In this document: piece by piece, positions 2,076-58,866 of the stretch
Numbering within the stretch: the first letter of the stretch is position 1
How the letters are laid out: each line of letters opens with the position of its first letter
Notes under the pieces: model-generated
What the model was told of the DNA's origin: nothing
Database searches by the model: none
Seen by the model: only the letters and a program-made list of their open reading frames with translations
Source: Chiloscyllium plagiosum
Taxonomy: Eukaryota
DNA: 60,867 bases
Direction: 5' to 3'
Assembly: GCF_004010195.1 (NCBI RefSeq)
Contig: NC_057719.1
Coordinates: 11,541,047-11,601,913, forward strand
Program-made: the position numbers and the translations under genes

Positions 2076-2282
2076 TTCTAGATTAGTGGTGCTGGAAAAG
2101 CACAGCAGTTCAGGCAGCATCCAAGGAGCTTCGAAATCGATGTTTCGGAATATTCCTGATGAAGGGCTTTTGCCCGAAACATCGATTTCGAAGCTCCTTG
2201 GATGCTGCCTGAACTGCTGTGCTCTTCCAGCACCACTAATCCAGAATCTGGTTTCCAGCATCTGCAGTCATTGTTTTTACCT
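2076..2282 (+). mobile_element. PLE-derived inverted-repeat element, family A
   Basis: Long inverted repeat with hammerhead core at the apex; 16-bp TSD CTATAGTACCACTAGG at 2060-2075 and 2283-2298. Confidence 0.85.
2152..2187 (+). ncRNA. Minimal type I hammerhead ribozyme motif (family A)
   Basis: ATTC-CTGATGA-A-GGGC TTTT GCCC-GAAA-CATC-GATT. Confidence 0.8.
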
Positions 2283-2627
2283 CTATAGTACCACTAGGCT
2301 GATGCCTCCCCATGCCATAGAGTTGATAGAGTTCAGGGTTCCACTTGCTTGCTACAGGGATGGACAGTCCAAATGTAAGGAACCACATGAAGATGAAGGG
2401 TTAAGGTGAAGATGATTTTGTCTTGGAGCAGGAGACGACTAGCAAATATCTGAGTAGCTCACAGAAAACAGGTCTGCATTTAACATAGCAGATATACTGT
2501 CAAAAGATACTTTGGGACAAAGAAAAATGTGTTGAGCAAATTATATACATTCAGTGAGAGATGACAGATAAGTGGTAAACCCATGAAACAATATGCTTCA
2601 GGAAAATTGGCTGCTTGCACGCTTTCC

Positions 2628-2860
2628 TTTTATTCATTTACAGGATGTAGGCATCACAGGCTAAGCCAGCGCTTATTAACCTCCATTAAAGGCTATGGGT
2701 CTGGAGTCACATGTGGGCCAGACCAAGAAATGATGGCCGATTTCCTTCCCTAAAGGAGATGACTGAACCACATTTATTCTTCCTGACAATGGTTTCACGG
2801 TCATCAGAATAACACGTGGATTCCAGTTTGATGGACTAGCGATACTATCATCATCTCCCC
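2628..2860 (-). mobile_element. Second tRNA-SINE type, decayed
   Basis: TTATTCATT...GGGTCTGGAGTCACATGTGGGCCAGACC homologous to 1752-2310. Confidence 0.6.
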
Positions 2861-2867
2861 TATAACT

Positions 2868-3092
2868 GGGTGCTCCAGTTACCTCCCACAGTCCAAAGAT
2901 GTGCAGGCTGGGTGAATTAGTCATCCTAAATTACCCATAGTGTTCAAGGGTGTATAGGTTAGGTGCATTAGTCAGGGGAAATGAAGAGTAATCGGGGAGG
3001 GGAATGGGTCTGGGTTGAATACTCTTCAGAGATTTGGTGTGGACTTGTTGGGCCGAATGTCCTGTTTACAAATGTAAGGATTCTATGATTCT
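2868..3092 (+). mobile_element. HE1-type SINE, 5' truncated
   Basis: CTCCCACAGTCCAAAGATGTGCAGG...GGATTCTATGATTCTA. Confidence 0.75.
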
Positions 3093-3799
3093 AACTTGTC
3101 ATCATGAATTTAAGGGGTGTTTAAATTCCACAAATAAGGAACAGTGTCTTCATAGAGGACAACAGTTTAACCTTGGGGTAGTAGGGGTGGGGAGAAAAAC
3201 CAGTATCTTGTCAGTCCAAATGAATCTTCTGTTCGTAAAAGCTTTTCACTGGAGGCTGTTTAAAGGGGGCATTTCATCATTGGAGGAACCGTATGTTAGG
3301 AAGAGGGTGGTGTGACTTGGGTGGTACCACACCTTTAAATGAGGAGGCAGTGCCCTTTTAAGAGAAATGACAGCAACTGAAACTGGCACCAGAGACTTAG
3401 TGATGGATTTGTTAGCACTCAATGTAAGCAGTCAGCCACTGCCAGGTCAATATGGAAGCTTTCTCAAAGTCTATAGACCTCTTTGTGAAGGGAGCAGGGA
3501 GTGAATATAAAATGTAAGCACACAATAATTATACAGGCAGCGAGGAGGATGCTGTCAGGCAGTTATTGATCTCCTGCAGTAGCACATGAATGCACAAGCA
3601 ACTTTGCCTAGCTGCCCCAAGCTCAGCTCTTTGTGTTTTATAACAGGGTAGAGCCATCCAGGCGAGATCACCCTCTATGGCCCTGTTGGTTCATACGTGT
3701 AAATTAGATATGGTGTTAAAGAATAAACAATTTCCCACATCCCCCCTTCCTGCAGAAGCTACCCCTGGGGGCCACGCGGCAAGATTGTGATTTATAAAG

Positions 3800-4230
3800 G
3801 GGTTCCAGGAACCAGAAACTTCAATAATGAGGACAGATTGAAAAAGTTGGGACTGTTCTCCTGGGAGAGCAGATCTGATAGCAGTTTTCACCATCACCAT
3901 GAGCTAGCTAGACAGAGTAGATAGGAAGAAACTGTAAAAGCGAAAAAGAACAAGAAATTGTAGACTTAAAGTGATGCGCAAATGAAGCAAGGGTGATGTG
4001 AGAAAATTCCTTTTCACACAGCGAGTAGTTAGGGTCTGGAATGCACTGCCTGGAAACATAGCATAGGCAGATTCATTTGAGGCATTCAAGAGGTGAATTA
4101 GATGACTATTTGGATAGAAATGGTGTCCAGAGATGCAGGAAAAAGGAAGAAGATTGACACTAAGTAACAGAACCGATATAGGCACGATAGACTGAACGGC
4201 TTCCTGTACTGTAGTAGTTCTGTGATTATG
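3800..4230 (+). mobile_element. Old CR1 LINE 3' fragment
   Basis: TTGGGACTGTTCTCC...TTTCACACAGCGAGTAGTTAGGGTCTGGAATGCACTGCCTG, the C-terminal FFTQRVV.VWNALP motif of CR1 ORF2. Confidence 0.7.
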
Positions 4231-5617: not shown

Positions 5618-5818
5618 TGTGTTGCTGGAAAAGCGCAGTAGGTCAGGCAGCATCCAGGGAACAGGAGAATCGACGTTTCGGGCATAAGCCCTTCTTGGGA
5701 AGGGCTTATGCCCGAAACGTCGATTCTCCTGTTCCCTGGATGCTGCCTGACCTGCTGCGCTTTTCCAGCAACACATTTTCAGCTCTGATCTCCAGCATCT
5801 GCTGACCTCACTTTCTCT
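5618..5818 (+). mobile_element. PLE-derived inverted-repeat element, family A (CTGATGA lost at the apex)
   Basis: About 79-bp near-perfect inverted repeat 5616-5694/5699-5777; 14-bp TSD TAATAGAAGATCAA at 5604-5617 and 5819-5832. Confidence 0.85.
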
Positions 5819-6240: not shown

Positions 6241-6910
6241 AATGGAAGAAAGACTGGTTTGTGTGATGGACTGAGCTGTGTTCACAACTCATTGTCATTT
6301 CTTGCAATCTTGAACAGAGCAATTACCAAACCAAACTGTGATACATCTGGATAGGAAGCTTTCTACGATGCATCTATAAAAATTGGTAAGAGTCATTGTG
6401 GACATGCTGAATTTCCTTCGCCTTCTGAGGAAGCAGAGGGGTTGGTGTGCTTTCTTGGCTGTAGCATCGATGTAGATGGACCAGGATAGTGTGTTGATGA
6501 TACTTATTTTTAGGAAGTTGAAGATCTCACCTACTTCCACCTCAGCACCATTGATAAAGACAGGGGCGTATTCTCTACTCTGCTTCCTGAAGTCGATGCC
6601 CAGCTCCTTCATTTTACTGACATTGAGGGAGAGATTTATGCCTTTACACTGTGCCACTAGTTGTCTATCTCCTTTCTGTACTCTGTCTCGTTGTTGTTTG
6701 TGATTGACCCACCACAGTAGTGTCATCAGCAAATGGAGTTAGAGCTGAATTGCGCCACGCAGTTATGAACATGTGGCAGGGGGCTGAGTACACAGCCTGG
6801 TTGGGCACCGTTATTGAGGAATTTTGTGGAGGCGATGTTGTCACCTATACTTAATGATTGCAGTCTGTGGGTCAGAAAGTCAAGGATCGAATTACAGAGC
6901 AGGGAGCCGA

Positions 6911-7876
6911 GTCATAGAGTCATAGAGATGTACAGCATGGAAGCAGACCCTACGGTCCAACCCGTCCATGCCGACCAGATATCCCAATCCAATCTAGTCC
7001 CACCTGCCATCACCCAATCCATATCCTTCCAAACCCTTCCTATTCATATACCCATCCAAATGCCTCTTAAATGTTGTAATTGTACCAGCCTCCACCACTT
7101 CCTCTGGTAGCTCATTCCATACACACACCACCCTCTGTGTGAAAAAGTTGCCCCATAGGTTTCTTTTATATCCTTCCCCTCTCACCCTAAACCTATGCCC
7201 TCTAGTTCTGGACTCCCTGACCCCAGGGAAAACACTTTATCTATTTACCCTATCCATGACCCTCATGATTTTATAAAGCTCTATGAGGTCACCCCTCAGC
7301 CTCTGATGCTCCAAGGAAAACAGCCCCAGCCTATTCAACCTCTCCCTATAGCTCAAATCCTCCAATCCACCCTGGTAACATCCTTGTAAATCTTTTCTGA
7401 ACCCTTTCAAGTTTCACAACATCCTTCCAATAGGAAGGAGACCAGAATTGTGCACAATATTCCAACAGTGACCTAACCAATGTCCTGTACAGCTGCAACA
7501 TGACCTCCCAACTCCTGTACTCAATACTCTCACCCATAAAGGAAAGCATACCAAACGCCTTCTTCACTATCCTATCTATCTGCGACTCCACTTTCAAGGA
7601 GCTATGAACCTGCATTCCAAGGTCTCTTTGTTCAGCAACACTCCTTAGGACCTTACCATTAAGTGTATAAGTCCTGATTTGCTTTCTCAAAATGCAACAT
7701 CTCGCATTAATCTAAATTAAATTCCATCTGCCACTCCTCAGCCCACTGACCCATCTGATCAAGATCCCGTTGTTATCTGAGGTAACCTTCTTCGCTGTCC
7801 ACTACATCTCCAATTTTGGTGTCATCTGCAAACTTACTAACTATACCTCCTATGTTCATATCCAAATCACTTATAC
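6911..7876 (-). mobile_element. CR1/HER1 LINE 3' fragment (about 1 kb)
   Basis: GTCATAGA tail repeat; ORFs with QRDLG.QVH.SLK, LYRTLVR..LEYC.QFWSP, FFTQRVV.VWNELP. Confidence 0.9.
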
Positions 7877-9196: not shown

Positions 9197-9575
9197 CCAA
9201 CTAGCCACGAAACGACATGACCAGCTATCCTTAGTAGCCACACACGCACAGATGACAAGCAACATGAGTTCGACTGGGACAACACTACTATTATAGGACA
9301 AGTCAAACAGAGAACAGCCAGGGAATTCCTAGAGGCATGGCACTCATCCACAGATTCTATCAACAAACACATCGACCCGGACCCAATATACCGACCATTG
9401 CAGCGGACAGCTGGAACTGACAACCGGAAGCGGCAGAGACAAACCACTATAAATGCCGGAGGAAAAATCACAGAAGCGCTTCACAGGAGGCTCCCAAGCA
9501 CTGAGGATGTCACCTAGACAGGGGATGAAACGTCTGCAATACAAATTCCCAGCTCGGCAATCAGAACCACAACAA
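9197..9575 (+). mobile_element. Penelope-like element 3' fragment (GIY-YIG C-terminal part plus pLTR), family C
   Basis: QLATKRHDQLSLVA..H...HEFDWDNTTIIGQ...AREFLEAWHS..SINKHID; followed by TATAAAT and a hammerhead. Confidence 0.85.
9498..9537 (+). ncRNA. Minimal hammerhead ribozyme motif (family C)
   Basis: GCA-CTGAGGA-T-GTCACC TAGACA GGGGAT-GAAA-CGTC-TGC. Confidence 0.8.
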
Positions 9576-9839
9576 TAATCAATTGTGTCACTATCACTGA
9601 AAATCCCACCATCAAAATCCTGAGAGTTATCATTCACCAGAAACTGAACTGGACCAGCTAAATAAATAATGTGGCTATGAGATCAGGTCAGAGCCTGGGA
9701 ACTCTGCAGGAAATAATTTACTTCCTGACTTCCTAATATGTCCTCCACCTACAAGGCTCAAGTAAAACATGAAATGCAATACTCTCCACTTACCTGAATG
9801 AGTGTTGGTCCAACAGCATTCAGAATAGCAATGAATTAA

Positions 9840-11359: not shown

Positions 11360-11458
11360 GGACGGCTGATGAAGGGTTTAAGCCCGAAATGTCAATTCTT
11401 CTGCTCCTCGGATGCTGCCTGACCGGCTGTGCTTTTCCAACACCACATTCTTCAGCAC
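11360..11458 (+). mobile_element. PLE family A single-arm element with hammerhead core
   Basis: CTGATGA-A-GGGT TTAA GCCC-GAAA-TGTC at 11366; 14-bp TSD TGTATTTCTATATG at 11346-11359 and 11459-11472. Confidence 0.8.
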
Positions 11459-11564: not shown

Positions 11565-11940
11565 TGATGTGGAGATGCGGGGATTGGACAAAGTCCACAT
11601 CACTCGGTTGTAATCCAACAGGTTTATTTAAAATCACAAGCTTTTGGAGCGCTGCTCTTTCATCAAGTGAAGTAGAGGGAGATGCACAGGCACAGAATAC
11701 AGAGGCGGAGAGATAATGGCAAGATAATTCTAAGTAATTAAGAGTGCCAACAGATCTACTCACACTATTTGTACTTAACTGTTGACACTCTTAAATACCT
11801 GGGATTGCCATTATCTCTCCACCTATTTATTCTGTGCCTATGCGCCTCCACTTCACCTGAAAAAGGAGCAACATTCCAAAAGCTTGTGTATTTAAATAAA
11901 CCTGTTGGTCTATAACCTGGTGTTATGTGACTTCTGACTA
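11565..11940. mobile_element. PLE family B long inverted-repeat element, decayed
   Basis: Arms CCAACAGGTTTATTT...GGAGCGCTGCTC.TTCATCA and CACCTGA..AAGGAGC...AATAAACCTGTTGG are reverse complements. Confidence 0.75.
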
Positions 11941-12039
11941 TGATCAAAATTCACTGCTCCATTGAGCGTGCTGCTAGCATTTGAAGTTAAAAGAACTAAG
12001 TGTTCAAGAAAATGATAGATATTCCAGTTATAAAGACCA

Positions 12040-12625: not shown

Positions 12626-12865
12626 GCAGTCTTAGCAATGGAATGTATCCAATATTCTTCATTAAAGCAAACTACATTACCAAAAAAAACGCAAAAGAAT
12701 CTTACCCACGCAATGCTTATAATCGAATTGATGTGGACTTGTCCAGAGGCCAGAACACCCTGCTCTGCCTCAGCTTCTCATTGACTAATCATTGTCTTCC
12801 CCCAGCTTGCTAAATTTCCACTGGAAGTAAGCTGTACTTCCACTGTTGCTATTGGTAATGTCGAA

Positions 12866-13925
12866 GACAGAGGGTGGTGTTGGAAAGTTGCTTTTCAGAT
12901 TGGAGGCCTGTGACCAGTGGTGTGTCACAAGGATTGGTGTTGGGTTCACTGTTTTTTGTCATTTATATAAATGATTTGGATGTGAACATAGGAGGTATGG
13001 TTAGTAGGTTTGCAGATGGCACCAAAACTGGAAGTGTAGTAGACAGCGAAGAAGGTTATCTCAGAGTACAATGGGATCTTGATCAGATGGGCCAATGGGC
13101 TGAGGAGTGGCAGATGGAGTTTAATTCGGATAAATGTGAAGTGCTGCATTTTGGAAAGGCAAATCAGGACAGGACTTATACACTTAATGGTAAGGTCTTG
13201 GAGAATGTTGTTGAACAAAGAGACCCTGGAGGACAGCTCCATAGTTCCTTGAAAGTGAAATTGTAGGTAGGTAGGATAGTGAAAAAGGCGTTTGGTAAGC
13301 TTTCCTTTATTGGTCAGAGCATTGACGATAGGTGTTGGGTGGTCATGCTAAGGCTGCACAGGACATTGGTTAGGTCACTTTTGGAATATTGCAGGCAATT
13401 CTGGTGTCCTTCCTATTGGAAAGATGTTGTGATATTTGAAAGGGTTTAGAAAAGCTTTACAAGGATATTGCCAAGGTTGGAGGTTTGAGCTATAGGGAGA
13501 GGCTGAATAGGCTGGGGCTGTTTTCCCTGGATCATCAGAGGCTGAGGGGTGATCTTATAGAGGTTTATAAAATCATGAGGGACGTGGATAGGGTAAGTAA
13601 ACAAGTCTTTTCCGTAGGGTGAGGGAGTCCAAAACTACAGGATGTAGGTTTAAGGATTGAGGGGAAAGATATAAAAGGGACCTAAGGGACACCTTTTTCA
13701 CACAGAGGGTGGTGTGTATACCAAATGAGCTGCCAGAGGAAGTGGTGGAGGCAGGTACAGTTACAATATTTATAAGGCATCTGGATGGGTATATGAGTAG
13801 GAAGGGTTTAGAGGGATATGGGCTAAATGCTGGCAAATGAGACTAGATTTATTTTGGATATCTGGTTGGCATGGATGAGTTGGACCAAAAGGTCTGTTTC
13901 TGTACTGTACAGCTCTATGACTATT
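12866..13925 (+). mobile_element. CR1/HER1 LINE 3' fragment
   Basis: VTSGV.QG.VLG..FVIYINDLD...FAD.TK, WQMEFN.DKCEVLHFG; CTCTATGACT tail. Confidence 0.9.
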
Positions 13926-14008: not shown

Positions 14009-14211
14009 TCTAACAGATGAAAAGCTTAACAGACAATCAATTTTTCAATGTATAATTTCAGTTACATCACAATGCAAATTTTTGCTATAAATTCTGTGTT
14101 ATGATCAAGCCCTCCACAATCACCTGATGAAGGAGTGTCGCTCCGAAAGCTAGTGTGCTTCCAATTGAACCTGTTGGACTATAACCTGGTGTTGTGTGAT
14201 TTTTAACTAAC
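14009..14211 (+). mobile_element. PLE pLTR-derived element, family B
   Basis: TATAAAT at 14086, hammerhead at 14121; 14-bp TSD GACAAACATCAGAT at 13995-14008 and 14212-14225. Confidence 0.85.
14121..14155 (+). ncRNA. Minimal hammerhead ribozyme motif (family B), core intact
   Basis: CAC-CTGATGA-A-GGAG TGTCG CTCC-GAAA-GCTA-GTG; predicted cleavage after A14152. Confidence 0.85.
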
Positions 14212-14326
14212 GACAAACATCAGATATGTGTCATGTTTTCCACACCATTTTGATCAGTTAACTTATGAACCTTTGTTTGTGTTTCTTGGAAAGGCACTTA
14301 TCTCTTGCCGTTAATGAACTTCAACA

Positions 14327-14612
14327 GGGTGGCACAGTGGCTCAGTGTTTAGCACTGCTGCCTCACAGTGCCAGGGAGCCAGGATTGATTTCAGCTTCAG
14401 GCGACTGCCTGGGTTGAGTTCACACCCTCCCCATGTGGGTTTCTGCCAGGTGCTCCAGTTTCCTCCTAGAGTCCAAAAATGTGCAAGTTAGATGGATTAG
14501 CCAGGGTGAAATGGAGGGTTATGGGGATAGGGTAAGGAGCTGAGATGGGTGGGATGCTCTTTCGGGAAGTCAGTGCAGACTTGATGGGCCAAATGGCCTG
14601 TAGGGACTCTAT
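14327..14612 (+). mobile_element. HE1-type SINE
   Basis: GGGTGGCACAGTGGCTCAGTG head through GGCCAAATGGCCTG tail. Confidence 0.8.
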
Positions 14613-15089: not shown

Positions 15090-15225
15090 AAGACACTGGA
15101 GAAACTCAGCAGGTCTGACAGCATCTGTGGAGAGAGAAACAGAGTTAAGATTTCGAGTTTGGTGTGACCTTTCTTCGGAACTTTATTTCAGATCTCCAGC
15201 ACCTTTGCAATATTTTTCTTACATT
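15090..15225 (-). mobile_element. PLE-derived element, family E-like, decayed
   Basis: CTGGAGAAACTCAGCAGGTCTG...TTTCGAG...GACCTTTCTTCGG; minus strand gives a decayed C.GAAGA..GGTC...CGAAA core. Confidence 0.55.
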
Positions 15226-15735: not shown

Positions 15736-16572
15736 CTAATTTATTTCCATTCAATCCTTATTCATAAAGAAAAGAAAATTTTATTTCCTCCCTCTTCCGC
15801 GGTCATCTCTGGCTGAGCTGGTTTGAACCCAGAGATTAACCATATTTGGTAATAAAGTAATAAAGTATCTTTGTTACTGAAGCATGAAAGAGCTGCGTTC
15901 ATCTTACACAGCAGAGCTAGTCAGCCTCAGTCCCTGTGGAAAGTTCAAATTTTCTGCATGGATCATGAGGAATGAGCTCGAAACATAAAGTTCAATTTGC
16001 TCAAAATGACATTCTCTAATGTTGTAGCATGGAGCAACGAATTGTGACCACTGATTTCAATTCCTCCTTCATGGAGAGAAAGAAGTCACATTAAGGGCTG
16101 TGTCCACGTGACATTTGAACAAACCTTGCTCATTTTTAAATCAATACCAGAGATTGATTGTGGGTTCTAGAAATAAAAGGATGTTCGATGAGACAGAGGA
16201 TAATGCATGCAGGACACATAGTCAGACAGGCCAATTGGACTAAAAGGATCTGTTAAAACGAATACAGAATACAAGCAAAGGCAAACAGATGTCCAGACAA
16301 TATCCAGATGGCTTTTCTCAAATGATTCATGTGATATCCATCTTGTAACAGAAGGGCCAGAGGTACTTGCACTGAACAGATAGGGTTCCTTAAGTTTTAT
16401 GTTTGAATGATGGAGGACCTACATTTATATATCCCCTTTTATGATTTCAAAATATCCCAAATTGCTTTTAGAAACATAGAAAAGAGAAGCAGGAGTGGGC
16501 CTTTTAGCCCGCTCCACCATTTAATATGATTACAGCTGATCGTCCAACTCAGTACCCAGTTCCTATTTTCTC

Positions 16573-16690
16573 CTGACGAAGGAGCAGTGCTCCAAAGCTT
16601 GTGATTTCAAATAAACCTGTTGGGCTATAACCTGGTGTCATGTGACTTCTAACTTTGTCCGCCTGAGTCCAACACCGGCACCTCCACATC
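16573..16690 (+). mobile_element. PLE family B fragment
   Basis: CTGACGA-A-GGAGC AGT GCTCC-AAAGCTTGTG...AATAAACCTGTTGG. Confidence 0.75.
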
Positions 16691-17222
16691 ATCCCCTCCA
16701 CAGTCAAACCACTTTACCTCAGATAAGGAGACCAAATTTGTACACAATACTTTAGAAGCATAGAATATAGAAGCAGCCCTTCGAGCCTGTTCCACCGTTT
16801 AATATGATCACAACGGATCATCCAACTCAGAACCCTGTTCCCACTTTATCCCCAAACTCTTTGATCCCTTTATCCTTAAGAACTACATCTAAGTCCTTCC
16901 TGAAAACATTTAATGCTTGGCCTCGACCACTTTCTGTGGCAGGGAATTCCACAGGAAGAAATTTCTCCTCATCTCAGTCCTAAATGGCTTATTTTGTATC
17001 CTTGGACAGTGACCCCTAGTTCTGGACTCCCCGGTCATTGGGAACAACTGTCCTCATACACCATGTCTTGTCCCATTAGAATTTCATAGGTTTCTATGAG
17101 ATCCCCCTCATTCTTCTAACCCCAGAGAATATAGTCTTAACCAATCCAGTCTCTCTTTGTGCATCAGTCCTGTGATCCCAGGGATCAGTCTGGTAAACTT
17201 TCATTTATCCCCTCCATAGTCA

Positions 17223-17365
17223 GAGTCAGAAGTCACACTTCACCTGATGAAGGGGCAGTATTCCAAAACCTTGTGATTTCAAGTAAATCCATTGGACTAT
17301 AACCTGGTGTCGTGTGACATCTGACTTTGTCCACCCCAGTCTAACACTGGCACCATCACATCGTG
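17223..17365 (+). mobile_element. PLE family B element
   Basis: CACCTGATGAAGGGG... core; 13-bp TSD CCCTCCATAGTCA at 17210-17222 and 17366-17378. Confidence 0.8.
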
Positions 17366-17625: not shown

Positions 17626-17850
17626 TAACAGGAGCAAAATACTACAGCTGCTGAAATCTGGACTGAAAACAACAAATGCTGGAGATCACAGCGGGTCAGA
17701 CAGCAGCGTGGAGAAAGAGAACGCTAACATTTCGAGTCTCGATGACTCTTCATCAGAGCTCTTATGAAGAGTCATCTAGACTTGAAACATGAGCTTGCTC
17801 TCTCTCCATGGCTGCTGTCTGACCCGCTGTGATCTCCAACATTTGTTGTT
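17626..17850. mobile_element. PLE inverted-repeat element, family D
   Basis: About 90-bp arms centred on palindromic GAGCTC (17756-17761); flanking direct repeat TCCATTCAGA at 17616-17625 and 17851-17860. Confidence 0.85.
17723..17759 (-). ncRNA. Minimal hammerhead ribozyme motif (family D)
   Basis: Minus strand: GCT-CTGATGA-A-GAGTC ATCGA GACTC-GAAA-TGTT-AGC. Confidence 0.85.
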
Positions 17851-17907
17851 TCCATTCAGACAGTGGTCTGCATTCCTGTTTCTGCAATCGCAGTTGATAA
17901 CCTCGCA

Positions 17908-17989
17908 GATCAGAGTCTAGATTAGAGTGGTGCTGGAAAAGCACAGCAGGGCAGGCAGCAGGAACCTGATGAAGTGCTTTTGCCCGAAG
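17908..17989 (+). repeat. 82-bp copy of 18550-18631 flanked by a 47-bp direct duplication
   Basis: Identical to the neighbouring family A copy; direct repeats at 17861-17907 and 17990-18036. Confidence 0.85.
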
Positions 17990-18099
17990 CAGTGGTCTGC
18001 ATTCCTGTTTCTGCAATCGCAGTTGATAACCTCGCATTTATCCACATTATACATCATCTACCATGCACTTTCCCACTGGCTCAACCTGTTCAGATTGTT

Positions 18100-18457: not shown

Positions 18458-18980
18458 GGAGGGAAATGATGGTACTGTGGAAGTGTCACTAACAATCCAA
18501 GGACTCAGGCTAATACTCTTGGGCAAAAGTGAGGACTGCAGTTACTGGAGATCAGAGTCTAGATTAGAGTGGTGCTGGAAAAGCACAGCAGGGCAGGCAG
18601 CAGGAACCTGATGAAGTGCTTTTGCCCGAAGCGTTGATTTTCCTGCTCCTCGGATGCTGCTTGACCTGCTGTGCTTTTCCAGCACCACTCTCATCTAGAC
18701 TCTAATACTCTTGGGGACATAGGTTCAGATAAATGCATGGCAACTGGTGCCATTTAAGTTCAATTAATAAAAATCTGGAATTAAAAGCCAGTAACCATGA
18801 CCAGTTGGATTGAGTAACTTCCAGTTGGGAAGAAAATCTATCATGAACATGGTCTGACCTACGTGTCCGTAACTTCACTGACACCTCTGAAATGTTTGTG
18901 CAGGCCACTCAGTTCAGGAATAATTAGACATGGGCAGCAATAACCAGCCTTGCCAGTGACACCCACATCTTAGAAAAAAT
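18458..18980 (+). mobile_element. Second tRNA-SINE type, interrupted by a PLE hairpin
   Basis: AATAAAAATCTGGAATTAA...GCCTTGCCAGTGACACCCACATC tail. Confidence 0.6.
18524..18701 (+). mobile_element. PLE family A inverted-repeat element
   Basis: CTGATGAAGTGCTTTTGCCCGAAG core (mutated); 14-bp TSD CTAATACTCTTGGG at 18510-18523 and 18702-18715. Confidence 0.85.
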
Positions 18981-20300: not shown

Positions 20301-21786
20301 TAGACTGACACAGGACATCTGAGAACTAAACTTCTACTCTACAAATGGATCTGTTCTCCATCATATAAAAAAGGAGAGAGAAACATCATGGAAGGTGCAA
20401 CTAACGATGTACTCGGCTTAAACCAGAAAAGAGAAGTCAGAGGGATGAAGTTTTTTTTTAATTAGTAAAGGGTTTGATAGTATAGATATAAAGAAGATTA
20501 TTTTCACTTAACTGGCAAGACCTGAATTAGGATAATAGCTAAGAGATAAATCCAGTAAGATATGCAGGAGAAGCATTTTTACCCAGAGACTGGTGAGTAA
20601 GTGATACTCACTATTGCAGAGAGTGATTCAAATGAATGACATAAACAAGGGGTAGTGATAAGTTCGAGAGAGGAAGGAATAAAAGGATATCAAATGGGAT
20701 CAGATGAAGAGGGGCAGAAAGAGAAATAAATGCCAGCATTCAAGTGAAGGGGCAAATGGCCTACTTCGGTGCTATTAAATACAATTTCTGTTCAATACAG
20801 CGGGTAATGGGGAAGTTCACTGGTTTGTATCAACTTGCCTTCCAACCAACACCTTATGATTTTCCGTGGTGGGGAGTTTATACTTGCTGATGCATCATTG
20901 AAAAAAATTTGAGAACGTTGGAAACGAGAAGCAGACCCTCCATTGTAAATCCTCTGTCGCCACCCGAAACCAATTTCATGGCCATTGCCATGAAGTTATT
21001 AGGAAATGGGAAGAGAATTTTTGTGGCAGAGCTTCCTGAATTAGGACAGCAGGAATTGGCATAAAAAGCAAAACTTTATGGGTTAAAATCAGATGTGAGA
21101 ACTGGAAAGGTGTTGAATTTTGTATATTCCACAACTTTGTGTCGGATGTAACTATGTTTGTCCAAAGCCAAAATCTTCTGCACAGTTCGCAAGACATTGA
21201 GAACATATTTGAGACAGGTGTCCTCCTCTGAGCTACTTTGCACGGTACACAGGCACCAGCAGAGGAGTCAAGATGGAGTGTATGTCAGTGTGGGGACTGC
21301 ACAAATGAAGTTTGCTATTTACTGCCAGTGGAAATGTGGGAATTGATGTCAAAGGCCAGCAATGCTGTTATTTTCTGAGTCATTCACCAGAGACTCCAGC
21401 ATGGAGAAGACACCGTGTGTGTGTGGAGAGACACATCATTCTGTGTGCGCTCAGTCAAAACATTCCCACAAACCTGATTTATATTCCTGACGAGTAGGGC
21501 CTGCATGATGGCCTGTTAATTGCATTGCCTGAACAACTGTTACTGCAATGAATAATGGTTTTTGCATTTCTCGCACAGACTTTAACCCATTGAGTGCTTT
21601 CACTGCATCTATTTCCTACAGTCCATCCCCACCAGACACAAAAAGGGCTGTAATAAAAACTGTGGGCAACAAGCCCACTGAGGACCAGAAGGGTTACTTT
21701 CTGCAGTTTCCTTTCTTATCATTCTCTCTCTCTCTCTTTTTCTCTCTCTCTTTTGATGATTGTCCCCCTTTCCCCTCCTTTAAGTT

Positions 21787-46944: not shown

Positions 46945-47048
46945 AAACAATCACAGAAAATCCTGGGAAAATTGGAGGTCTGGTTGCATCTGTGGAGACA
47001 GAAACAGCATTAATGTTTCAAGTCTGGTGTGACCTTTCTTAAGAACTT
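46945..47048 (-). mobile_element. PLE family E-like fragment, decayed
   Basis: Homologous to 15090-15185. Confidence 0.5.
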
Positions 47049-47878: not shown

Positions 47879-49434
47879 ACAACTGATCACCATCTCATGC
47901 CTGTAACCATGAACCCATTGCACTATAATCTTTCCCATTTCCTCCTTTCCCACAGCCCTGCAATCTCATTCCTTTTCAAATGTCTAAGTTCCTTCGGCTA
48001 ATTAATACTGAATCTGCCTTTCAGGCAGTGTATTCCAGATCATAAAACTTACACTGGAAATAAAAAAGGTCCTCATCTCCCGACATCCATGAGTATTGAG
48101 GTGGGGTGGGGAAGGAAGGTAGTTATATCCGTCTGGCTTTGAAGTTGATAGTTTTGTGTAGTTATCTTGTTGGGGAGATTCACATCTGTGAAGCCTGAGC
48201 AGACACTTATCTCCTTTTTTGTAAATAGAGCGGTAAGCTTGTGATTAACTTGCTTGCAATTCTATGGATCAGGACCACATCCTTTGCAGCTGTAGCAATC
48301 TGCGGCTCCTGACATTTCCCCAGCAACGGGAGACAATGACTGTGAAGCAGTGAAGAAGAGCAAAGAGCTTCTGTTTGAGCTATTATTCCTTCAAACAGGC
48401 GCATTCTGATCAAGCGTATAGTCTTATCAGGAGCTGCCACATGTCGGCCTTGGGAGGCTGGCACTAATGAGGCGTTTGTGATCTCGCAGACCATCACTTT
48501 TGTGCGTTATCAGGGGGCTGACACCAATCTCCTTGAGTGACATTCTGCCTGTGTAATTACAAAAAGCAGTTGAAAGTCAACACAAACAAGAAGCAGCCGC
48601 TCAGATTCTGCTGGGCAACACCATTGTTTTGAATAACAGAATTTTTTTAAGGCAGACCGTGACAGTTACAAATCAGTACTGCATACCCAAGTTTGATAAA
48701 AAAATAATAACAATCATTTTCATTCTGTAGCATTTAATCAGAACCCTGCAGAGTTCTCAATCATACGCCTGCATGTGTCAGAACATTTATCCTCTTATTT
48801 AAGATAAATACAATATGGCTTTAACCAATAAATCTAAGATTCTATACATACGTGACTGTCTCTATTGCAGCTCAGCTAACTCACCCCTCAGACATCACCT
48901 TTGACCTGTGTCATATATACATGATTCGCATAAATTTCATATTCGTCAAACTGAAATTGAGGAAAATTTGCATTAACCAATGTATAAGGGGGAATGAAGG
49001 CAGCCAATCACAAAGTTCAGGAAAAAAAGCTACCAATCAAATGGTGTGGCAATTAACAAACAGAAAGCAAGAAGAAAATCTGTCTGGGGCAATTAAAGCA
49101 CTGTAAATCCCTTCAATAATTTTTACTATCATTCAACTTAACTTTGTCATTCCCTTCCCTCCACTCCTAGTGCACTGTGGCAGCAATGTGAACCATCAAC
49201 AAGATGCATTCATCAAGCCTTCTTTGACAATATTTCCCAGGCCTGTCTTCTCTAACATCTGAAAAGACAAGGGTTCAAAATCTCCAAGAATAAATGCACC
49301 CTCTAGTCACACACCATCCTGATTTGGAGCTATGTTACTGAAAAGGCAGCCATTTTGCCTGAAGCTTTTTACCTTGAATTCTAAAGGACATATGCAGGAA
49401 TGCCAAATTTCAAACAATCATAACTTATACAACA

Positions 49435-49745
49435 GGATGGCAGAGTGGCTCAGTGGTTAGCACTGCTGCCTCACAGCGTCAGGATCCCAGGTTTGATTCC
49501 ACACTTGGGCATCTGTCGGTGTCTGCATGGGTTTCCTCCAGGTGCTCCAATTTCTTCCCACTGTCCAAAGATATGCACATTAGGTGGATTGTCCATGCTA
49601 AAATGCCCATTGTTTCCAGGGATGTGAAGGTTAGGTGGATTGGCCATGGGAAATGCTGGGTTACAGGATTAGGGTAGGGGGGTGGGATGCTCTTTGGTAA
49701 GTTGCTGTGGACTGAACGCCCTGCTTCCACGCTGTGGGGATTCTA
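49435..49745 (+). mobile_element. HE1-type SINE
   Basis: GTGGCTCAGTGGTTAGCACTGCTGCCTCACAGC head. Confidence 0.82.
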
Positions 49746-50069
49746 GGAGAAAGAGGTGTGGCTTGGTTGGCAAACCTATGCAGATTTACAATATTCACAG
49801 TAAAGGGAATATCTGGAAATATATTACCATTGTTGCTGGGTCAAAAAACATTTAGGGTGTTAGAATCATAGAATCCCTAAAGTGTAGGGGTGGCCATTCA
49901 GCCCATCAAGGCATACATTTCCCACACACAGTGGTGCAATGATTCATGAGGGGAATGCTGATCTCACCAGCTTCTCAAGGACAAACCTTTCAGATTTAGT
50001 TAAGGAACTCCAAGCCTTTTCTAATTCTAAAATGTTATTGCTTTTACTCGACAGTTCGAGAATTATCAG

Positions 50070-52619: not shown

Positions 52620-54950
52620 TTTGAAAAAAAAAGGATATCATGTGTCTCAGAATTGTTGGTTGTCCAGCAAGGTTGTTCACACTTGCCTTCTGAGTATAGA
52701 TTGTGCTGAAAATAGTAATCCCTTCTCCAGTGGTGTTGCACAAAATGCTTGACACATGGCAGTCATTGGTGTAATTGTACATTAATATTCATTCTGCTTT
52801 GACTATTTGAGTATAGATAATGGGTGATGCTGTGATCTGGGTCACCCCATTTAGTACGCCTGTCTTGAAATGTCGGTGAACTGTAGTCTGTTGTCAGACA
52901 GTATCTGATCTGGTATACCAGATAAAATGAGAATAGAGCACATTCTGACAGCAACGGTCTCGCATGTGTTGCTAGCTTGTCGAACAAAGGGAAATGTGGA
53001 GCAGTAATGTCAATTTAATCTCCCCCATGCACTGTGAATTCAACCTGCTACCACTTTTCTCCAAACACTGGATAGAACATCACATGGATGTAAAGGCTGC
53101 AGCCGGGTTAATGTATTTGTCATGTCTCACAGGTATTCACTTGCCATTGATGAGCCCGATTCATCTCTGACCACACACAGATTCATGGTCTAGTTATCTG
53201 GTGCCTTAGCTAGCCATGTGTCCGTGGTGTTACCTTGGCATTACATTTTTCTTATTAGGATTTGTCGGTCATTGAAAATGAATTGTTGTGATATACCCAA
53301 GCTCATTTGTCTATAACAAAAGTGAATGTATCTTCTCAGGAACTTCTTTAGTACTGTCAGGAAATTCCTGGACAAGGGTCTTTTGTAACTCTTGTTGTTG
53401 CTCATCTTCAGCAGTTGCTGATTGCAATTGTTCACAAAAGGCTCTGGCCAAAGTGTAACAGTGCACCCTCGAAAATGTTGTTCTACCTCAGCCTAGAGCA
53501 CCAACATGTAGACTAAGAGGAGTATCTTGGTCTTTATGTGGGTTGAGTAATTTTTTCAGCGTGTCAGACATAAACACCCATGGACTGGTCTTACATCTCA
53601 CATCAATATTACATCCTTGAAAACCATTGACTGATTCAATTCCATCATGTGGGTGCGGTTTAGTTCTCTGCTTTCTAAATATACCAAGACCTGTGCAAAT
53701 GTAATCTTTCCACTGCTGAACCATTGGTATCTACCAGGTGGAAGATTTTGGGAAGCCAGGATGAGCTGGTGTATTAGTATAGCATGATTATTTAGTCAAT
53801 GCATGGAATTCATGATCCATTATATACTGTGTGGTTGTCCCTCATAACATGTTACACGGACCACCATTTGCTGAGGTACAAGTCCTTCAGAATGCTTTTG
53901 AATAATGTATTGGCACCAGCAATGGCATCGATTTTAGTTTTTAGTGTGTATTGTCGTGCCTTTTTTAGGACATGTGATATTAATGATTGCTTAAACTGCT
54001 GATTGTCTTATACCATATTGTTAATTTGACATTGTATGTCAAGTTAACAATATGGAGAGCTTGATCAGCTTTTGAAATTTGTTATTCACTTGTTTAATTC
54101 AGATCCTCATTAATGTGCTTGCATTTCTGTATCTCTCAATACTTTTCTTGCTGCCAATGTTATGTTGATAATCACACAACACCAGGTTAAAGTCCATCAG
54201 GTTTATTTGGAAGCACTAGCTTTTGGAGCGCTGCTCCTTCATCAGGTGGTTGCAGCGCTCTGAAAGCTAGTGCTTCCAAATAAACCTGTTGGACTAGAAC
54301 CTGGTGTTGTGTGATTTTTCAACTTTGTACACACCAGTCCAACACTAGCATCTCCAAATCATAATGTTATGTTGTCCCATCTTGTTGGTCACCTCACCTT
54401 TGCTCTGGGATCTGGTGTGGCCTGTGGAACTAAATTTCCTGTACACGTATGTCCAATGTCCTTTGGTGCCTCATGTTGTAGAAATCAAGAGAAGCTGGAC
54501 AGCTTTTTGAATAGATGTAAAAAACCATGTTACAAATTTTATTGGTTCACTTTCTCTGCTGTCCATAGCAATAGAATTGGCTGCACCTAAAGTATGTCAA
54601 TGTGGTTGGTGTGCCACAAAGACTTCATACTTGCCTCCATCCTCAAGTTATGGGTCAATGTTACTGCACTTTATCATTGTCCAACTGATTCTTCCTAAAG
54701 GCTTTAACTGGTGTGGAGACAATGAATAATGACTGAGCCTCTCTGAACAGTTCCTCTTCAGAAAAGTCACACTCATGCCCTTTGCTAAGAATCTTCTGAA
54801 GTCTGATCAATTGATGCTGGGTTTGTTCTCTGTGTAAATCGAGTTGGAATCTTTTAATCTTAAAATTAATTCTGACCTTTGAGTTGGTCTTCAATTACTT
54901 TCCTGATATATTCAGGATCTTTCTGATCATCATTGTAAAGACAGAATGAG
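52620..54950 (-). mobile_element. Old Gypsy internal region (gag-PR-[RT deleted]-RH tail-IN)
   Basis: Minus frames: CPA...KGHWT.V.RK knuckle (about 54450), KIDAIAGANTL protease-like (about 53920), DVR.K...MSDTL..L.NP, HHGHM...ESVW..MN...C.T, DY.S.FPFVRQ, GIPDQILSDN. Confidence 0.7.
54168..54362. mobile_element. PLE family B inverted-repeat element
   Basis: Minus CAC-CTGATGA-A-GGAGC AGC GCTCC-AAAA-GCTA-GTG; 12-bp TSD AATGTTATGTTG at 54156-54167 and 54363-54374. Confidence 0.85.
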
Positions 54951-55007: not shown

Positions 55008-56131
55008 CATAGAATTACCTATTGCTTAGTCTGTAAAATAGTACTGCAGACATTTTCTTTGAGCAGTTGCAATACAGTAAAGGTGTCACTCTATGCCAGA
55101 TCCATGTTGAGGTTTCTGCTATCCATGATTCCACCTGAAAAATGTTTCATCATGTCATCTTAAGCCATGAATTTAAATTGGCCATGTCTTAATAATGAAA
55201 TCTTTACAGTTATTGTTATGAGAAATTGTTACTTCTGGATCACCAACTGCCAGAAACAGAGTCTTCTAGCTTTCTATACCTCTCAGTATTTTCCTTGCTG
55301 CCTATGTTAGCTTGATAATCACACAACACCAGGTTATAGTCCAACAGGTTTATCTAGAAGCAATAGCTTTCAGACCTCTGCTCCTTCATTAGTTGGTTGC
55401 AGCGTTCCAAAAGCTGTTCAAGCATATGAATACACTCCAGGTTTTTTTAAATCTAAAATATTTTTTTTTAAATTATTTTATTTGAATGAACTTATATTCA
55501 AGCCAAAAAGAAATTATCTTTGCTTCTTGCTGGTTAATGCCCTATCTATGACCTCTACATAGAATTACCTATTGCTTAGTCTGTAAAATAGTACTGCAGA
55601 ATTTTCTTTTAGCAGTTGCAATACAGTAAAGGTGTCACTCTATGCCAGACCCATGTTGAGGTTTCTGCTATCCATGATTCCACCTGAAAAATGTTTCATC
55701 ATGTCACCTTAAGCCATGAATCCCTGATTTTGTGTCAGTGTAAATTTAAATTGGCCATGTCTTAATAATGAAATCTTTACAGTTATTGTTATGAGAAATT
55801 ATTACTTCTGGATCACCAACTGCCAGAAACAGAGTTTTCTAGCTTTCTATACCTCTCAGTATTTTCCTTGCTGCCTATGTTAACTTGATAATCACACAAC
55901 ACCAGGTTATAGTCCAACAGGTTTATCTAGAAGCAATAGCTTTCAGAGCGCTGCTCCTTCATTAGTTGGTTGCAGCGTTCCAAAAGCTGTTCAAACATAT
56001 GAATACACTCCAGGTTTTTTTAAATCTAAAATAATTTTTTTTTAATTATTTTATTTGAATGAACTTATATTCAAGCCAAAAAGAAATTATCTTTGCTTCT
56101 TGCTGGTTAATGCCCTATCTATGACCTCTAC
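55008..56131 (+). repeat. Tandem duplication, about 550 + 574 bp
   Basis: CATAGAATTACCTATTGC starts at 55008 and 55558; both copies end ATGACCTCTAC. Confidence 0.92.
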
Positions 56132-56207
56132 AGCTGTCCGTACTCACAGAAAATTATGCTGCTTAAAGGTGAGAAACTTCCCTTTCTTTAGATTCAAAGC
56201 TTTCCAA

Positions 56208-56520
56208 GGGTGGCATAGTGGCTCAGCAGTTAGCACTGCTGCTTCATAGTGTTGGGACACAAGTTCAATTCTACCCTTCAGTGGCTGTCTGTGTGGAGTT
56301 TGCATGTTTTCCCTGTGTCTGTGTGGGTTTCCTTGCACAGTCTAAAGATGTGCGAGTTAGGTGTATTAGCCATGCTAAATTGTCAACAGATTGCAGGCTA
56401 GGTAGATTAACCATGGGAAATTCAGGGTTACAGGGATAGGGTGGGATGCTCTTCAGAGGGTTGGTGTGGACTTGATGGACTGAATGGCCTGCTTCCACAC
56501 TGTAGAGATTCTATGATTCA
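56208..56520 (+). mobile_element. HE1-type SINE
   Basis: GGGTGGCATAGTGGCTCAG head; GATTCTATGATTC tail. Confidence 0.82.
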
Positions 56521-57204
56521 AAGCTATTGTCTTAGGTTAGTTTTCCTCAAAGGTATTGAAGTCTTTTATAGACAACCACCGAACAAACATGCTGTGAGTT
56601 CACCCCCAACAGGGTGCAGCATTGGTTATGTTACTCCCTACAACTCATGAAACCAGGGGAGTGTGGTTTATATTGTGTATTGAAGAATCCAACAGGTATT
56701 TATTGGAATCAATCATTACGTACAAGCAATACATTCTTCTGGCATAAAAGTGTCTGGGCTAATGTTAATCTGTTAGAATAAACAGGAGCAATCATGCACT
56801 GGAGTAATGCTTCAAAAGATCCAAGATAAAATGAAGTTGGAAACTTTATGTCCTCATGTTATGTATTGTAATACAGTGATGTTAAAATGAGCAAGTCTCT
56901 TAAAACCATTCTAACATTCTCACTACAAGACATAATACAATAGAGTCTGTGCCATGCACCTGAACTGACAAATAGGCACCAAGCCTAAACCTTATACCAA
57001 GCACCTGGAGCAATGTAGCAGCCCACTGGACTGCACTATCAGAGCTAAAAGGATTAAGCTGCAAAAGTAGGTTATCCAGAGTGGGTTTGTGGTCCCTTGA
57101 GTGTAAAAAGATTCAAGAGTGATCTTGTTGAAGCATTTAGATAATTAAAGGAGTTGATAAAGTACAGTGAGAGAACATGTTTTTTTCTAAGTCTGAAAAA
57201 TAGG

Positions 57205-57325
57205 ACACATTACAGGTAGAAATCAGAATTAACGTTTTGGGTTGAGAGACGCTTCCTCAGAGTTTTTCCAACAATTTCTATTATTCCTTCTGATTTACAG
57301 CATCCATAATTCTTTCAGTTTTTAT
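57205..57325 (-). mobile_element. PLE family E element with decayed hammerhead
   Basis: Minus: CT-CTGAGGA-A-GCGTC TCTC AACCC-AAAA-CGTT-AA. Confidence 0.55.
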
Positions 57326-57432
57326 TTCTCTTTCCCAAATGGCTGTTGAAGCTAGGGGTCAATTGCAAATTTCAGAACTAAGATTGATAGATTTCTGTTA
57401 ATGGTTACAGAATCAGGACAAATAAATGACCT

Positions 57433-57782
57433 CATAAGGGGCATGGATAGGGTGAATAGCCAAAGCATTTGTTCTCGGATGAGGAAGTCCAAAACTAGAA
57501 GGCATAGGTTTAAGGTGAGAGAGAAAAGATTTAAAAATGACTTGAAGGGTAACTTTTTTACACAGTTGGTGGTGCATGTACACAATGAGCTGCCAGAGGA
57601 GGTGGTGGAGGTTGGTACAATAACAACATTTAAAAGGCATCAAGATGGGTATATGACTAGGAAGGGTTTAGAGGGATGTGGTCCAAATGCTGGCAAATGG
57701 GACTAGGTCAGAATGGGATGTCTGGTTGGCATGGATGAGTTGGACCAAAGGGTCTGCTTCCATATTGTATGATTCTATGACT
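57433..57782 (+). mobile_element. CR1/HER1 3' end
   Basis: IRGMDRV...GNFFTQ.VV.V.NELPEEVVE. Confidence 0.88.
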
Positions 57783-58746
57783 CAATTGTCCCAATTGAGT
57801 GGTGGGTCAGGCCTGAGCCTTATTCGTTCAGATATTTTTATGAATTGTCAGTCTGAACTGGGGCCCGAAACATACACATAAAGAAAAATAACTGATACAT
57901 GGAAAATATAACTTGCTAAAATACTCTGCGAGAAACTTTGCAGAAGGTCATTTATTAATAAAAATTCTGTTAACTGAAAGGGCCATCTGTTACACTCCAG
58001 AGACTCCTCTCACTTCCCAAGTTAGCATCTACCACAAATGGTTAAAATATTCTGAATCTAAATAATGAAGTGGCCAAGTGCAGAAGTTAAATAGAGGATC
58101 ATGTGGAGCTGACATTACAAATAACAGCATAGAACAAGAGAGGAGGAGAACGATGTCATCGGCTGGCTAAATTGTTAAGTACATCCAGATTTAATTTCTT
58201 GCTATGAATATAACAGATTATAGTTATTAAAGGTCTTTTAAAATATCTGCGCTTTTAAACTTCATTGTGTCACTTTGCTTTCAATGTAAATTCTGGTAGG
58301 GAGGAGATATGATTGCTAATGTTGGTGCATTATTTTCTGTCACTATCATTTATACAATTGTTTTGGGGACCAGTGATAAATAACAATCCTTCTGAATCTG
58401 CAGAGACTGGATGTGCTTTCAGCATTTATCTTACCTGTCCTCCAGCCTTATATCCTCACGTTCTTCTGCTCTCTCGGTATTACTCTCTCCCCTTGTCCCA
58501 CACTATGGATTGAGAACAGGGGGATGGGTTGGGGCAGAGTCATCAGTCTCCAAGTTTGACTCTCTCTCTGCCTTCCTGAACTTTTTGCTCACTCCACTTC
58601 TCTCTCCACTTCCATCTCTTCACAAAATTCTCCAAACTTGGTCAGCCTTCCTCATCTCTATCTTCTAAGTATTATAGGGATGTGCTATACAGATTAGTAA
58701 TTTGTTATTTCATTCATTGACGATCCTGCATATACATATTAAGCCC

Positions 58747-58866
58747 AAGTTTTGAGAAGATTTGTAGTTCAGGCTGAGGTTCTGGATGTAGGTTTGCTCG
58801 CTGAGCTGGAAGATTTGTTTCCATGAAAATGAACCTTTCAGCTCAGTGAGCAAACCTACATCCAGA
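58747..58866. mobile_element. PLE family C terminal hairpin remnant
   Basis: GTAGGTTTGCTCGCTGAGCTG / CAGCTCAGTGAGCAAACCTAC as in 29049-30126; flanking ACA(T/C)ATTAAGCCC. Confidence 0.8.

Follow-up and report, generated by a model that had tools for sequence, protein, structure and literature searches.

The window analysed here is a 60,867-nucleotide stretch of the genome of the shark Chiloscyllium plagiosum (NCBI RefSeq GCF_004010195.1, contig NC_057719.1, positions 11,541,047–11,601,913). Across it we counted 24 insertions in five families (A–E), or one per 2.5 kb, a total that takes in two fragments without the downstream part. These figures are in line with a sequence-only reading of the same DNA, which had described about 20 short insertions in at least five families at about one per 3 kb. 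An optional tail of 30–40 bp at one end and an adjacent inverted, truncated copy were both observed. Below, arm start positions are numbered relative to the hammerhead cut site.

Family A occurs as head-to-head pairs, single arms and fragments. The A2 pair at 2076–2282 (+) joins a short inverted arm, which ends at 2148, to a tailed forward arm (2151–2282) with a complete core at 2156–2183, and is flanked by a 16-bp target duplication (TSD; 2060–2075/2283–2298). The arms of the A1 pair at 5618–5818 (+; 14-bp TSD, 5604–5617/5819–5832) start at −25 and −23, both within the core, so that no complete hammerhead is present; those of the A1 pair at 32407–32604 (+; 17-bp TSD, one mismatch) start at −17 and −26. 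The pair at 18524–18701 (+; 14-bp TSD, 18510–18523/18702–18715) combines a tailed minus-strand arm starting at +20 with a short plus-strand arm in which one core A is changed. An exact copy of the centre of this insertion lies at 17905–17991 between 47-bp duplicated flanks, and is either a local duplication or an assembly patch. In the pair at 33637–33953 the plus-strand arm passes through the tail into the ORF start of the parent element (+229), and a 39-bp fragment is found at 34024–34062 (+). Single arms lie at 11360–11455 (+; complete core 11366–11393; 17-bp TSD, one mismatch), at 22852–22945 (−; starting within the core at −25) and at 37783–37870 (−; complete core 37868–37841; 14-bp TSD), the last inside the RT part of a Gypsy-type remnant.

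Family B comprises an old head-to-head pair at 11585–11942, with decayed cores and 165 nt between the arms, and a second pair at 54168–54362 (−; core 54245–54217; 12-bp TSD, 54156–54167/54363–54374). The single arm at 14009–14211 (+; 14-bp TSD, 13995–14008/14212–14225) retains about 115 nt of 3′ UTR and a complete core (14124–14152). Tailed single arms are located at 16568–16704 (+; decayed core) and 17223–17363 (+; core 17244–17272; 15-bp TSD, one mismatch), and two decayed arms at 55317–55399 and 55882–55972 (both −) are copies 1 and 2 of a local tandem duplication.

Family C is represented by longer remnants. At 9197–9576 (+; subfamily C2) a C-terminal GIY-YIG coding remnant is followed by a terminal repeat (pLTR) with a complete core (9501–9534); a search for a TSD found none. 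The C1 inverted pair at 29052–30126 (+; 16-bp TSD, one mismatch) consists of a minus-strand arm (29050–29270), an RT-thumb remnant near 29270–29430, a GIY-YIG remnant (29714–29940) and a pLTR with a complete core (30052–30085), together with an inserted 284-bp host piece. A small C1 pair at 58747–58866 has a 13-bp TSD with one mismatch and no hammerhead. The family D head-to-head pair at 17626–17848 (−; 12-bp TSD, one mismatch) carries a complete core (17756–17726) on its tailed arm. Family E includes old single arms at 15096–15182 (−; decayed core) and 46953–47047 (−), and a broken head-to-head pair at 57218–57327 (−), in which an inverted tail piece adjoins a hammerhead arm with its core at 57260–57231. 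In the cores beginning at 54245, 57260 and 17244, G12 is changed to A.

The sequence-only reading held that most insertions carry an intact or decayed hammerhead motif. The motif is present at all nine positions that it cited (cores beginning at 2156, 9501, 11366, 14124, 17756, 30052, 37868, 54245 and 57260), but a core with all its letters is kept by only 7 of the 24 insertions, and many are truncated within it. Its two family C examples, at 9498 and 30049, both have the motif, but belong to distinct subfamilies that are 75% identical. In both, GIY-YIG coding sequence precedes the motif.

The insertions are not confined to the window. A random genome sample of 966 kb contained 241 of them, or one per 4 kb, which extrapolates to roughly 0.9 million in the genome; the arms of families A–D made up about 4% of the sampled DNA (40,971/965,984 bp). 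A descriptor of the minimal hammerhead, strict in that it required the core, at least 4 bp of helix II, palindromic positions 15.1–16.1 and at least 2 bp of helix I, matched five times in the window against a mean of 0.17 over 30 dinucleotide shuffles, and 16 times in 378,902 random bases against 0–2 in five shuffles. One of the matches in the window, at 35743, is probably due to chance. An Rfam search of the window gave 12 matches, all of them below-threshold hairpins, and the Rfam hammerhead models had no match there at E-values up to 5.

Coding parents and the hammerhead core

Families A, B and C are the pLTRs of coding Penelope-like elements (PLEs) with RT and GIY-YIG in this genome. The family A pLTR lies 678–1329 nt downstream of a same-strand PLE RT at 25 of 30 RT loci; it occurs both after the ORF and, in partial tandems, before the ORF start, where short stretches of pLTR are linked to the beginning of the ORF. 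Atlas protein clusters assign its parent to HTH_animal/GIY-YIG (score 0.94). Upstream of the family B pLTR, a 3′ UTR of roughly 700 nt connects it with GIY-YIG at 8 of the 25 loci and with RT at 3 of them. The family C pLTR is contiguous with RT and GIY-YIG. Pfam scores for GIY-YIG were 19.8–20.2 bits, under the cut-off of 22.6, and RVT_1 scored above its cut-off for C. Families D and E are probably PLE pLTRs as well, D on the evidence of one locus read by eye and E on a single weak match to coding sequence (E = 0.003). The long open frames examined were assembly gaps and none was an intact full-length ORF; two apparent 765–768 aa frames of family C proved to be N-gap artefacts.

The presence or absence of a CX2-5CxxC linker before GIY-YIG separates PLE clades (PMC8557442). 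A CX4CxxC linker is present in the A and B parents, as in Neptune-type elements of that study, and absent from the C parent. Judged by this motif, the A and B parents are of the Neptune/Nematis type, with these two taken together, and the C parent is of the Penelope/Poseidon type.

The identification of the motif as the type I minimal hammerhead of PLE pLTRs was borne out. Pairing was taken from per-family majority sequences, in which helices I and II are maintained with different sequences. The conserved core and palindromic positions 15.1–16.1 are kept in six subfamily majorities, across families that cannot otherwise be aligned, while the pairs of helix I, only 2–4 bp long, differ by family. 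As monomers the motifs are predicted to fold weakly (−3.7 to −14.2 kcal/mol), and MFE co-folding did not yield the active hammerhead fold. The head-to-head arrangement of pairs places the two motifs on opposite strands, within long hairpins in which 75–95% of the sequence is paired.

Decay of the catalytic G12 keeps pace with neutral CpG decay: G>A occurs in 41 of 185 copies and in 73 of 376 instances of other CpGs (P = 0.50). The copies thus decay neutrally. Subfamily A1 diverges by 3% at the core and by 8% at downstream positions. This gap stems from differences among source subfamilies and was not read as selection on the copies; the G12 comparison shows neutral decay. The ribozyme is likely functional only in source elements, where it may act as a weak cutter dependent on a dimer or a protein.

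Arm ends and a model of insertion

TSDs vary from 10 to 19 bp and were found for 12 of the 22 window insertions tested; medians at random loci were 15 bp (A) and 12 bp (B). Copy lengths form a continuum from stubs to coding fragments, and 52 of 54 head-to-head junctions were distinct. The 3′ ends are bimodal, falling at two sites about 35–40 nt apart, which correspond to arms without and with the tail. Among 57 pairs, 46 consisted of one tailed (long) and one untailed (short) arm, compared with an expectation of 50% (P = 1.5e-6). Of 15 pairs, 12 had the same loop-II variant on both arms, where 22% would be expected to match.

At the 5′ end, 69 of the 108 arms in tight pairs start at −45 to −22, the hammerhead front, while 2 of 108 start at −2 to +4, the cut site. 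This count was limited to tight pairs (54 or 55 of 79, wider pairs being left out) because older subfamilies, with a 3′ UTR unlike the references used, inflate the BLAST-defined 5′ ends of single copies. Most paired arms start just before the hammerhead in A, B and D/E; family C, with few copies, had no such pile-up. In partial tandems, too, the downstream piece often starts 3–5 nt before the core. The copies show no sign of hammerhead-cut RNA as the usual template.

We consider it about 70% probable that the insertions are hammerhead-bearing pLTRs of coding Penelope-like retrotransposons, heavily 5′-truncated and likely made by the parents' RT and GIY-YIG from uncut RNA. The pieces are likely truncated copies made by parent elements rather than a separate class of mini-elements. 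The GIY-YIG nuclease would make a staggered cut, and each free DNA end would then serve as primer for cDNA synthesis, which would begin at one or other of two internal sites lying downstream of the hammerhead, pass through the uncleaved hammerhead and stop near its front. The simplest reason for this stop, judging from the copy ends and from an initiator-like motif at the hammerhead front, would be that the RNA made from the pLTR promoter has its 5′ end there. End-joining of the two cDNAs would produce the palindrome. Both the start-point pile-up and the pairing of long with short arms would fit such two-strand priming at two internal sites of uncut RNA. Transcription and renewed copying of some of the solo pLTRs is also conceivable.

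Close parallels exist in vitro. For Poseidon of Anolis carolinensis, the tail is bounded by two internal sites of RT initiation, and the protein, a predicted dimer, cuts and extends both strands of the DNA with uncut RNA as the main template (Frangieh et al., 2024; PMC11167929). The bimodal 3′ ends in the shark match these two start sites and the cleavage and extension of both strands. In the available text of that study, however, the strands showed no difference in start site and palindromic insertions are not treated, whereas genomic pairs here mostly combine the two start sites. Tentatively, the hundreds of thousands of stubs may be a fossil record of Penelope insertion, in which a protein dimer primes both strands of one staggered cut on the uncut mRNA that encodes it, using two different RT start sites within the 5′ pLTR, with the cap site of this mRNA at the initiator-like motif by the edge of helix I. 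If this is true, dimer two-site priming would explain the head-to-head palindromes, the one-sided tail and the glut of solo pLTRs in one step.

In a rather improbable alternative, RT stalling at the folded hammerhead or at a bound protein causes the 5′ pile-up, and palindromes arise by fold-back of one cDNA or by self-priming on an antisense template, as already proposed for the latter (PMC3846280). The peak does lie at the outer edge of helix I, and arms in long pairs tend to match in length (for example −229/−245 and −275/−301), which two independent cDNAs alone do not explain and which counts against our preferred model. Yet RT comes upon helices I and II from their 3′ side and has traversed both by the time it stops, and the monomer folds are weak. 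Fold-back of a tailed cDNA also predicts that the short arm never extends further 5′ than the long one, but of 44 pairs it does so in 17, and the long arm is the further-reaching one in 9.

Relation to known elements

Lone and opposite-strand pLTR hammerhead copies are on record from other animals. Metazoan PLE pLTRs with minimal type I hammerheads were published by Cervera and De la Pena (2014; PMC4209133), with the same CUGANGA-N-helix II-GAAA core, palindromic 15–16 positions, short helix I and several families per genome. As here, most motifs were single, "probably related to truncated PLEs", and some formed opposite-strand pairs 100–700 bp apart. Their counts were about 4,000 motifs in coelacanth and 9,000 in Xenopus, against about 150,000 here, extrapolated from 16 in 379 kb. 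In the available text and supplement of that paper we found no shark hammerheads and, unlike here, no mapped 5′-end positions. Insertions of EN+ PLEs consist of a pLTR, an inverted 5′-truncated copy and a 30–40 bp tail at one end (PMC8557442, PMC3846280), and share with the shark copies head-to-head arms, a one-arm tail, partial tandems and long TSDs. They differ in that most insertions here are pLTR only, with arm starts piled up at the hammerhead front; a count of such start points was not found in the available parts of either paper.

The shark families thus belong to a known class, to which the long-plus-short arm rule and the start-point pile-up add something. Searches of the literature, mainly open-access papers, found none on these families or this rule. 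As a discovery the families are of modest value, and what is offered is scale and a testable mechanism. With about 4% coverage by A–D, few other genomes would be as rich in natural variants of the minimal hammerhead. On the way in which PLEs form head-to-head repeats and one-sided tails, the arm rule and the pile-up give two predictions directly testable in the existing in vitro system.

The sequence-only reading had favoured non-autonomous, SINE- or retrozyme-like elements. True non-autonomous families, in which solo pLTR RNAs of about 130–270 nt from short masters are mobilised in trans like SINEs, are unlikely. Their sharp 5′ start is as expected of a short master, and 155 of 212 random insertions reach no further than −60, a count by A–D references that unmatched 3′ UTRs inflate. 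In a rotifer, pLTRs suffice for trans mobilisation (PMC3846280), and pLTR-derived non-autonomous forms are reported in vertebrates, including one cartilaginous fish (bioRxiv 10.64898/2026.07.22.740005). Against this, the same pLTR sequences are found on coding elements, lengths are continuous, partial tandems link short pieces of pLTR to the beginning of the ORF, and the anole template depends on ORF sequence beyond the RT start (PMC11167929), which solo stubs lack. A fixed unit amplified from its own master and distinct from an autonomous partner is not what we find, given the nearly always distinct junctions and the parent's own pLTR sequence.

Retrozymes, hammerhead-cut units that are circularised and re-integrated, are a very unlikely source. 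Non-LTR retrozymes are head-to-tail tandem repeats of 150–450 bp that make circular RNA; they share type I hammerheads and a relationship to PLE pLTRs with the families here (PMC7229834; bioRxiv 10.64898/2026.07.22.740005), and were found in the sole chondrichthyan sampled (bioRxiv 10.64898/2026.07.22.740005). Occasional head-to-tail partial tandems would also suit this origin. Copies here, however, are dispersed, single or head-to-head with motifs on opposite strands; there are no unit tandem arrays in the window, helix I is minimal and 5′ ends are not in excess at the cut site. TIR MITEs unrelated to PLEs, with a hammerhead likeness by chance, an origin the earlier note had itself raised, can be practically dismissed: despite near-perfect palindromes of 160–200 bp, the TSDs are long and variable, arms are often single or unequal, the core is kept across unalignable families, and continuity with RT/GIY-YIG ORFs refutes this reading.

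One poly(A) single-cell run, possibly from a different species, contained 1,986 matching reads, 94% of which continue into unlike sequence, with no pile of read starts or ends; a second run had no matching reads. Partial tandems at first seemed to break at one fixed position, about 235 nt beyond the cut site, but this disappeared with another query and was due to query bias. A splice site as the 5′ boundary was considered, given the pyrimidine-CAG context there in families D and E and a D. virilis intron that ends at helix I, but was set aside, as the AG is retained in many E copies and inspection by eye revealed no upstream exon in common. A non-templated cap G was also looked for: in 81 family A rows, the base before the start motif was G in 16 and A in 6, and the cases inspected could mostly be put down to TSD, microhomology or inverted arm.

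Hammerhead-bearing insertions in the window and across the genome

The sequence-only reading had placed hammerhead motifs at nine positions (2152, 9498, 11366, 14121, 17723, 30049, 37840, 54214 and 57228), and a plain motif scan with manual reading of the window bore out all nine; seven retain every letter of the core, and two carry A in place of G12. It had suggested descriptor and Rfam searches as checks. A strict hammerhead descriptor gave 5 matches in the window vs 0.17 per shuffle (30 shuffles) and 16 matches per 378,902 bases of random genome vs 0–2 in 5 shuffles, exceeding the shuffles in both settings; the Rfam hammerhead models returned no match in the window.

The motifs belong to five families (A–E), which are terminal repeats (pLTRs) of Penelope-like elements (PLEs) in the case of A–C and probably so for D and E, with 24 insertions in the window, and target duplications (TSDs) of 12–17 bp were found at 12 of the 22 tested. 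For a random sample, one hundred 10-kb stretches were taken from large contigs at round coordinates, giving 965,984 non-N bases; they contained 241 insertions (A 121, E 58, B 39, C 16, D 7), or one per 4 kb, and the reversed-sequence control contained none. Insertions of these families are real and abundant in this genome, with a rough extrapolation from the sample giving ~0.9 million. Their density in the window is somewhat above the genome average, yet not special.

Minimal hammerheads in PLE pLTRs are already published (PMC4209133), and the available text of that study reports single motifs as well as motifs on opposite strands, relating them to truncated PLEs. Excerpts of other studies describe inverted PLE arms with a one-sided tail (PMC3846280) and non-autonomous repeats that derive from pLTRs in several vertebrates, one of them a chondrichthyan (bioRxiv 10.64898/2026.07.22.740005). 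The value of the present finding lies in mechanistic regularities rather than in the existence of the elements; no paper on the long+short rule described below, or on these particular families, was found in the largely open-access literature covered. On the features tested, the insertions do not qualify as retrozymes, SINEs or MITEs, and the SINE/retrozyme-like affinity proposed earlier is not supported.

Coding parents and hammerhead structure

Family A lies on the same strand as a PLE reverse transcriptase (RT), 678–1329 nt downstream of it, in 25 of 30 loci from a genome search. These loci were found with a second PLE RT fragment as query, and one insertion contributes both of its arms as separate loci. 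At one locus (L120), gapless sequence joins RT, a CX4CxxC linker, GIY-YIG and the A repeat in that order, and the Atlas clusters closest to its protein are HTH_animal/GIY-YIG proteins. Because the A repeat also occurs ahead of the ORF start in partial tandems, it qualifies as a pLTR. The upstream extension of family B is a CA-rich 3' UTR, which reaches GIY-YIG in 8/25 loci and RT in 3/25, and the B parent carries the CX4CxxC linker as well. Family C is preceded by RT-thumb and GIY-YIG coding remnants in the window, and by RT and GIY-YIG at another locus (L073). The available text of PMC8557442 gives a criterion separating Neptune/Nematis from Penelope/Poseidon type PLEs, by which the sequences assign A and B to the former type and C to the latter. 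Families D and A have 3' sequence in common, and a 3' UTR with a GIY-YIG-like C-terminus was read by eye at one D locus. Family E is an older relative of the same layout, its coding link being one weak match. No intact full-length ORF was seen; most long copies are interrupted by assembly gaps.

Six subfamily majorities all keep CUGANGA, an unpaired base, a helix II of 4–6 bp, GAAA and a palindromic ACGU or AGCU, the same motif as the minimal hammerhead in the available text of PMC4209133. Helix I is 2–4 bp, with base pairs that vary between families. This retention points to selection in the source elements. G12, the general base (PMC6155905), is part of a CpG; 41/185 copies have lost it, vs 73/376 losses at other CpG guanines, an equal rate (P=0.50). 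All core letters are kept in 63/111 (A), 15/39 (B), 10/18 (C) and 6/18 (D) of the core-spanning random arms. Head-to-head pairs of arms are predicted to fold into long hairpins and carry their motifs on opposite strands, and are therefore unlikely to cut.

Insertion anatomy and a possible mechanism

Counted from the hammerhead cut site, 3' ends are bimodal in A (about +50–68 or +93–101), B (+53–63 or +93–96), C (+40–45 or +73–77) and D (~+61 or ~+95), the two sites corresponding to absence (short arm) or presence (long arm) of an optional tail. Among 57 tight random pairs, 46 were long+short, 7 short–short and 4 long–long, an excess of mixed pairs over the 50% expected under independence (P=1.5e-6). 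Junctions were distinct in 52/54 pairs, so the palindrome is built anew with each insertion; both arms had the same loop-II variant in 12/15 pairs vs 22% expected. Arms in tight pairs started at −45 to −22, the front of the core and helix I, in 69/108 cases and at the cut site in 2/108. This count rests on pairs whose arms lie close enough for each to set the other's boundary, and excludes ~25 wider pairs of 79; single-copy BLAST ends were not used because older subfamilies carry other 3' UTRs. Many pieces in partial tandems begin 3–5 nt ahead of the core, and the few family C copies showed no clear pile-up of arm starts.

Palindromes could arise by simple fold-back, which the similar arm lengths of long pairs favour; against it, in 17/44 pairs it is the short arm that extends further 5'. 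According to the available text of PMC11167929, both target strands are cut and extended in vitro by the Poseidon protein of an anole, which takes uncut RNA as template and begins reverse transcription at two internal sites, these marking the limits of the tail. Applied to the present families, these results suggest that a staggered target cut would yield the TSD, that each target strand would be primed at one of the two internal start sites, and that reverse transcription would pass through the intact hammerhead, the cDNAs stopping near its front before being joined. The simplest reason for this stop would be the 5' end of the RNA. PLE promoters have been located in the pLTR (PMC2377424, PMC3846280, available text). 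Families A, D and E have pyrimidine-pyrimidine-A four bases ahead of the core. This resembles an initiator, a likeness that is only a lead for the RNA start, since the three families are relatives and the A is itself base-paired in helix I. Where a non-templated cap G was sought ahead of this motif, 81 family A rows showed 16 G and 6 A, but the cases inspected were mostly attributable to the TSD, microhomology or the inverted arm; 1,986 RNA reads from one poly(A) single-cell run, possibly of another species, showed no pile-up of starts or ends.

Neighbouring sequence and local copies

Within a family C insertion whose own arms differ by 3%, a 284-bp piece (29431–29714) shows 100% identity to a stretch of host DNA (28040–28323) that lies 1.4 kb upstream; it is either a recent local copy, a later-homogenised capture or an assembly patch. 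The segment 17861–18036 consists of 47-bp duplicated flanks around an exact copy of the centre (~18549–18631) of a family A insertion, and we suspect a local templated copy or an assembly patch. Elsewhere in the genome, near-identical partial tandems (pLTR, ORF start, 3' UTR, pLTR) at several loci (L080, L084–L091) share a start base after an N gap and differ in their 3' flanks; a small family with an internal deletion, or an artefact of gap filling, could explain them. At another locus (L034:7026–7257), arms of families A and B stand head to head, an arrangement that suggests nesting of the A copy within a B insertion rather than a hybrid pair.

Gypsy-type LTR retrotransposon remnants on the minus strand (37468–40392; RT, integrase and zinc knuckle by Pfam) hold a family A stub within their RT region, and a tandem duplication (55170–55469 and 55743–56042, 98% identical) carries two family B stubs. 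An abundant SINE-like family with a tRNA-like head, which may resemble the shark HE1 SINE, occupies 18 window segments (e.g. 14322–14601, 24411–24728, 25678–26003 and 49430–49748). LINE RT fragments lie at ~6910–7875, ~12863–13922 and ~21783–22712, and minisatellites with periods of 30–31 bp and 52 bp at 60551–60867 and 59117–59299.
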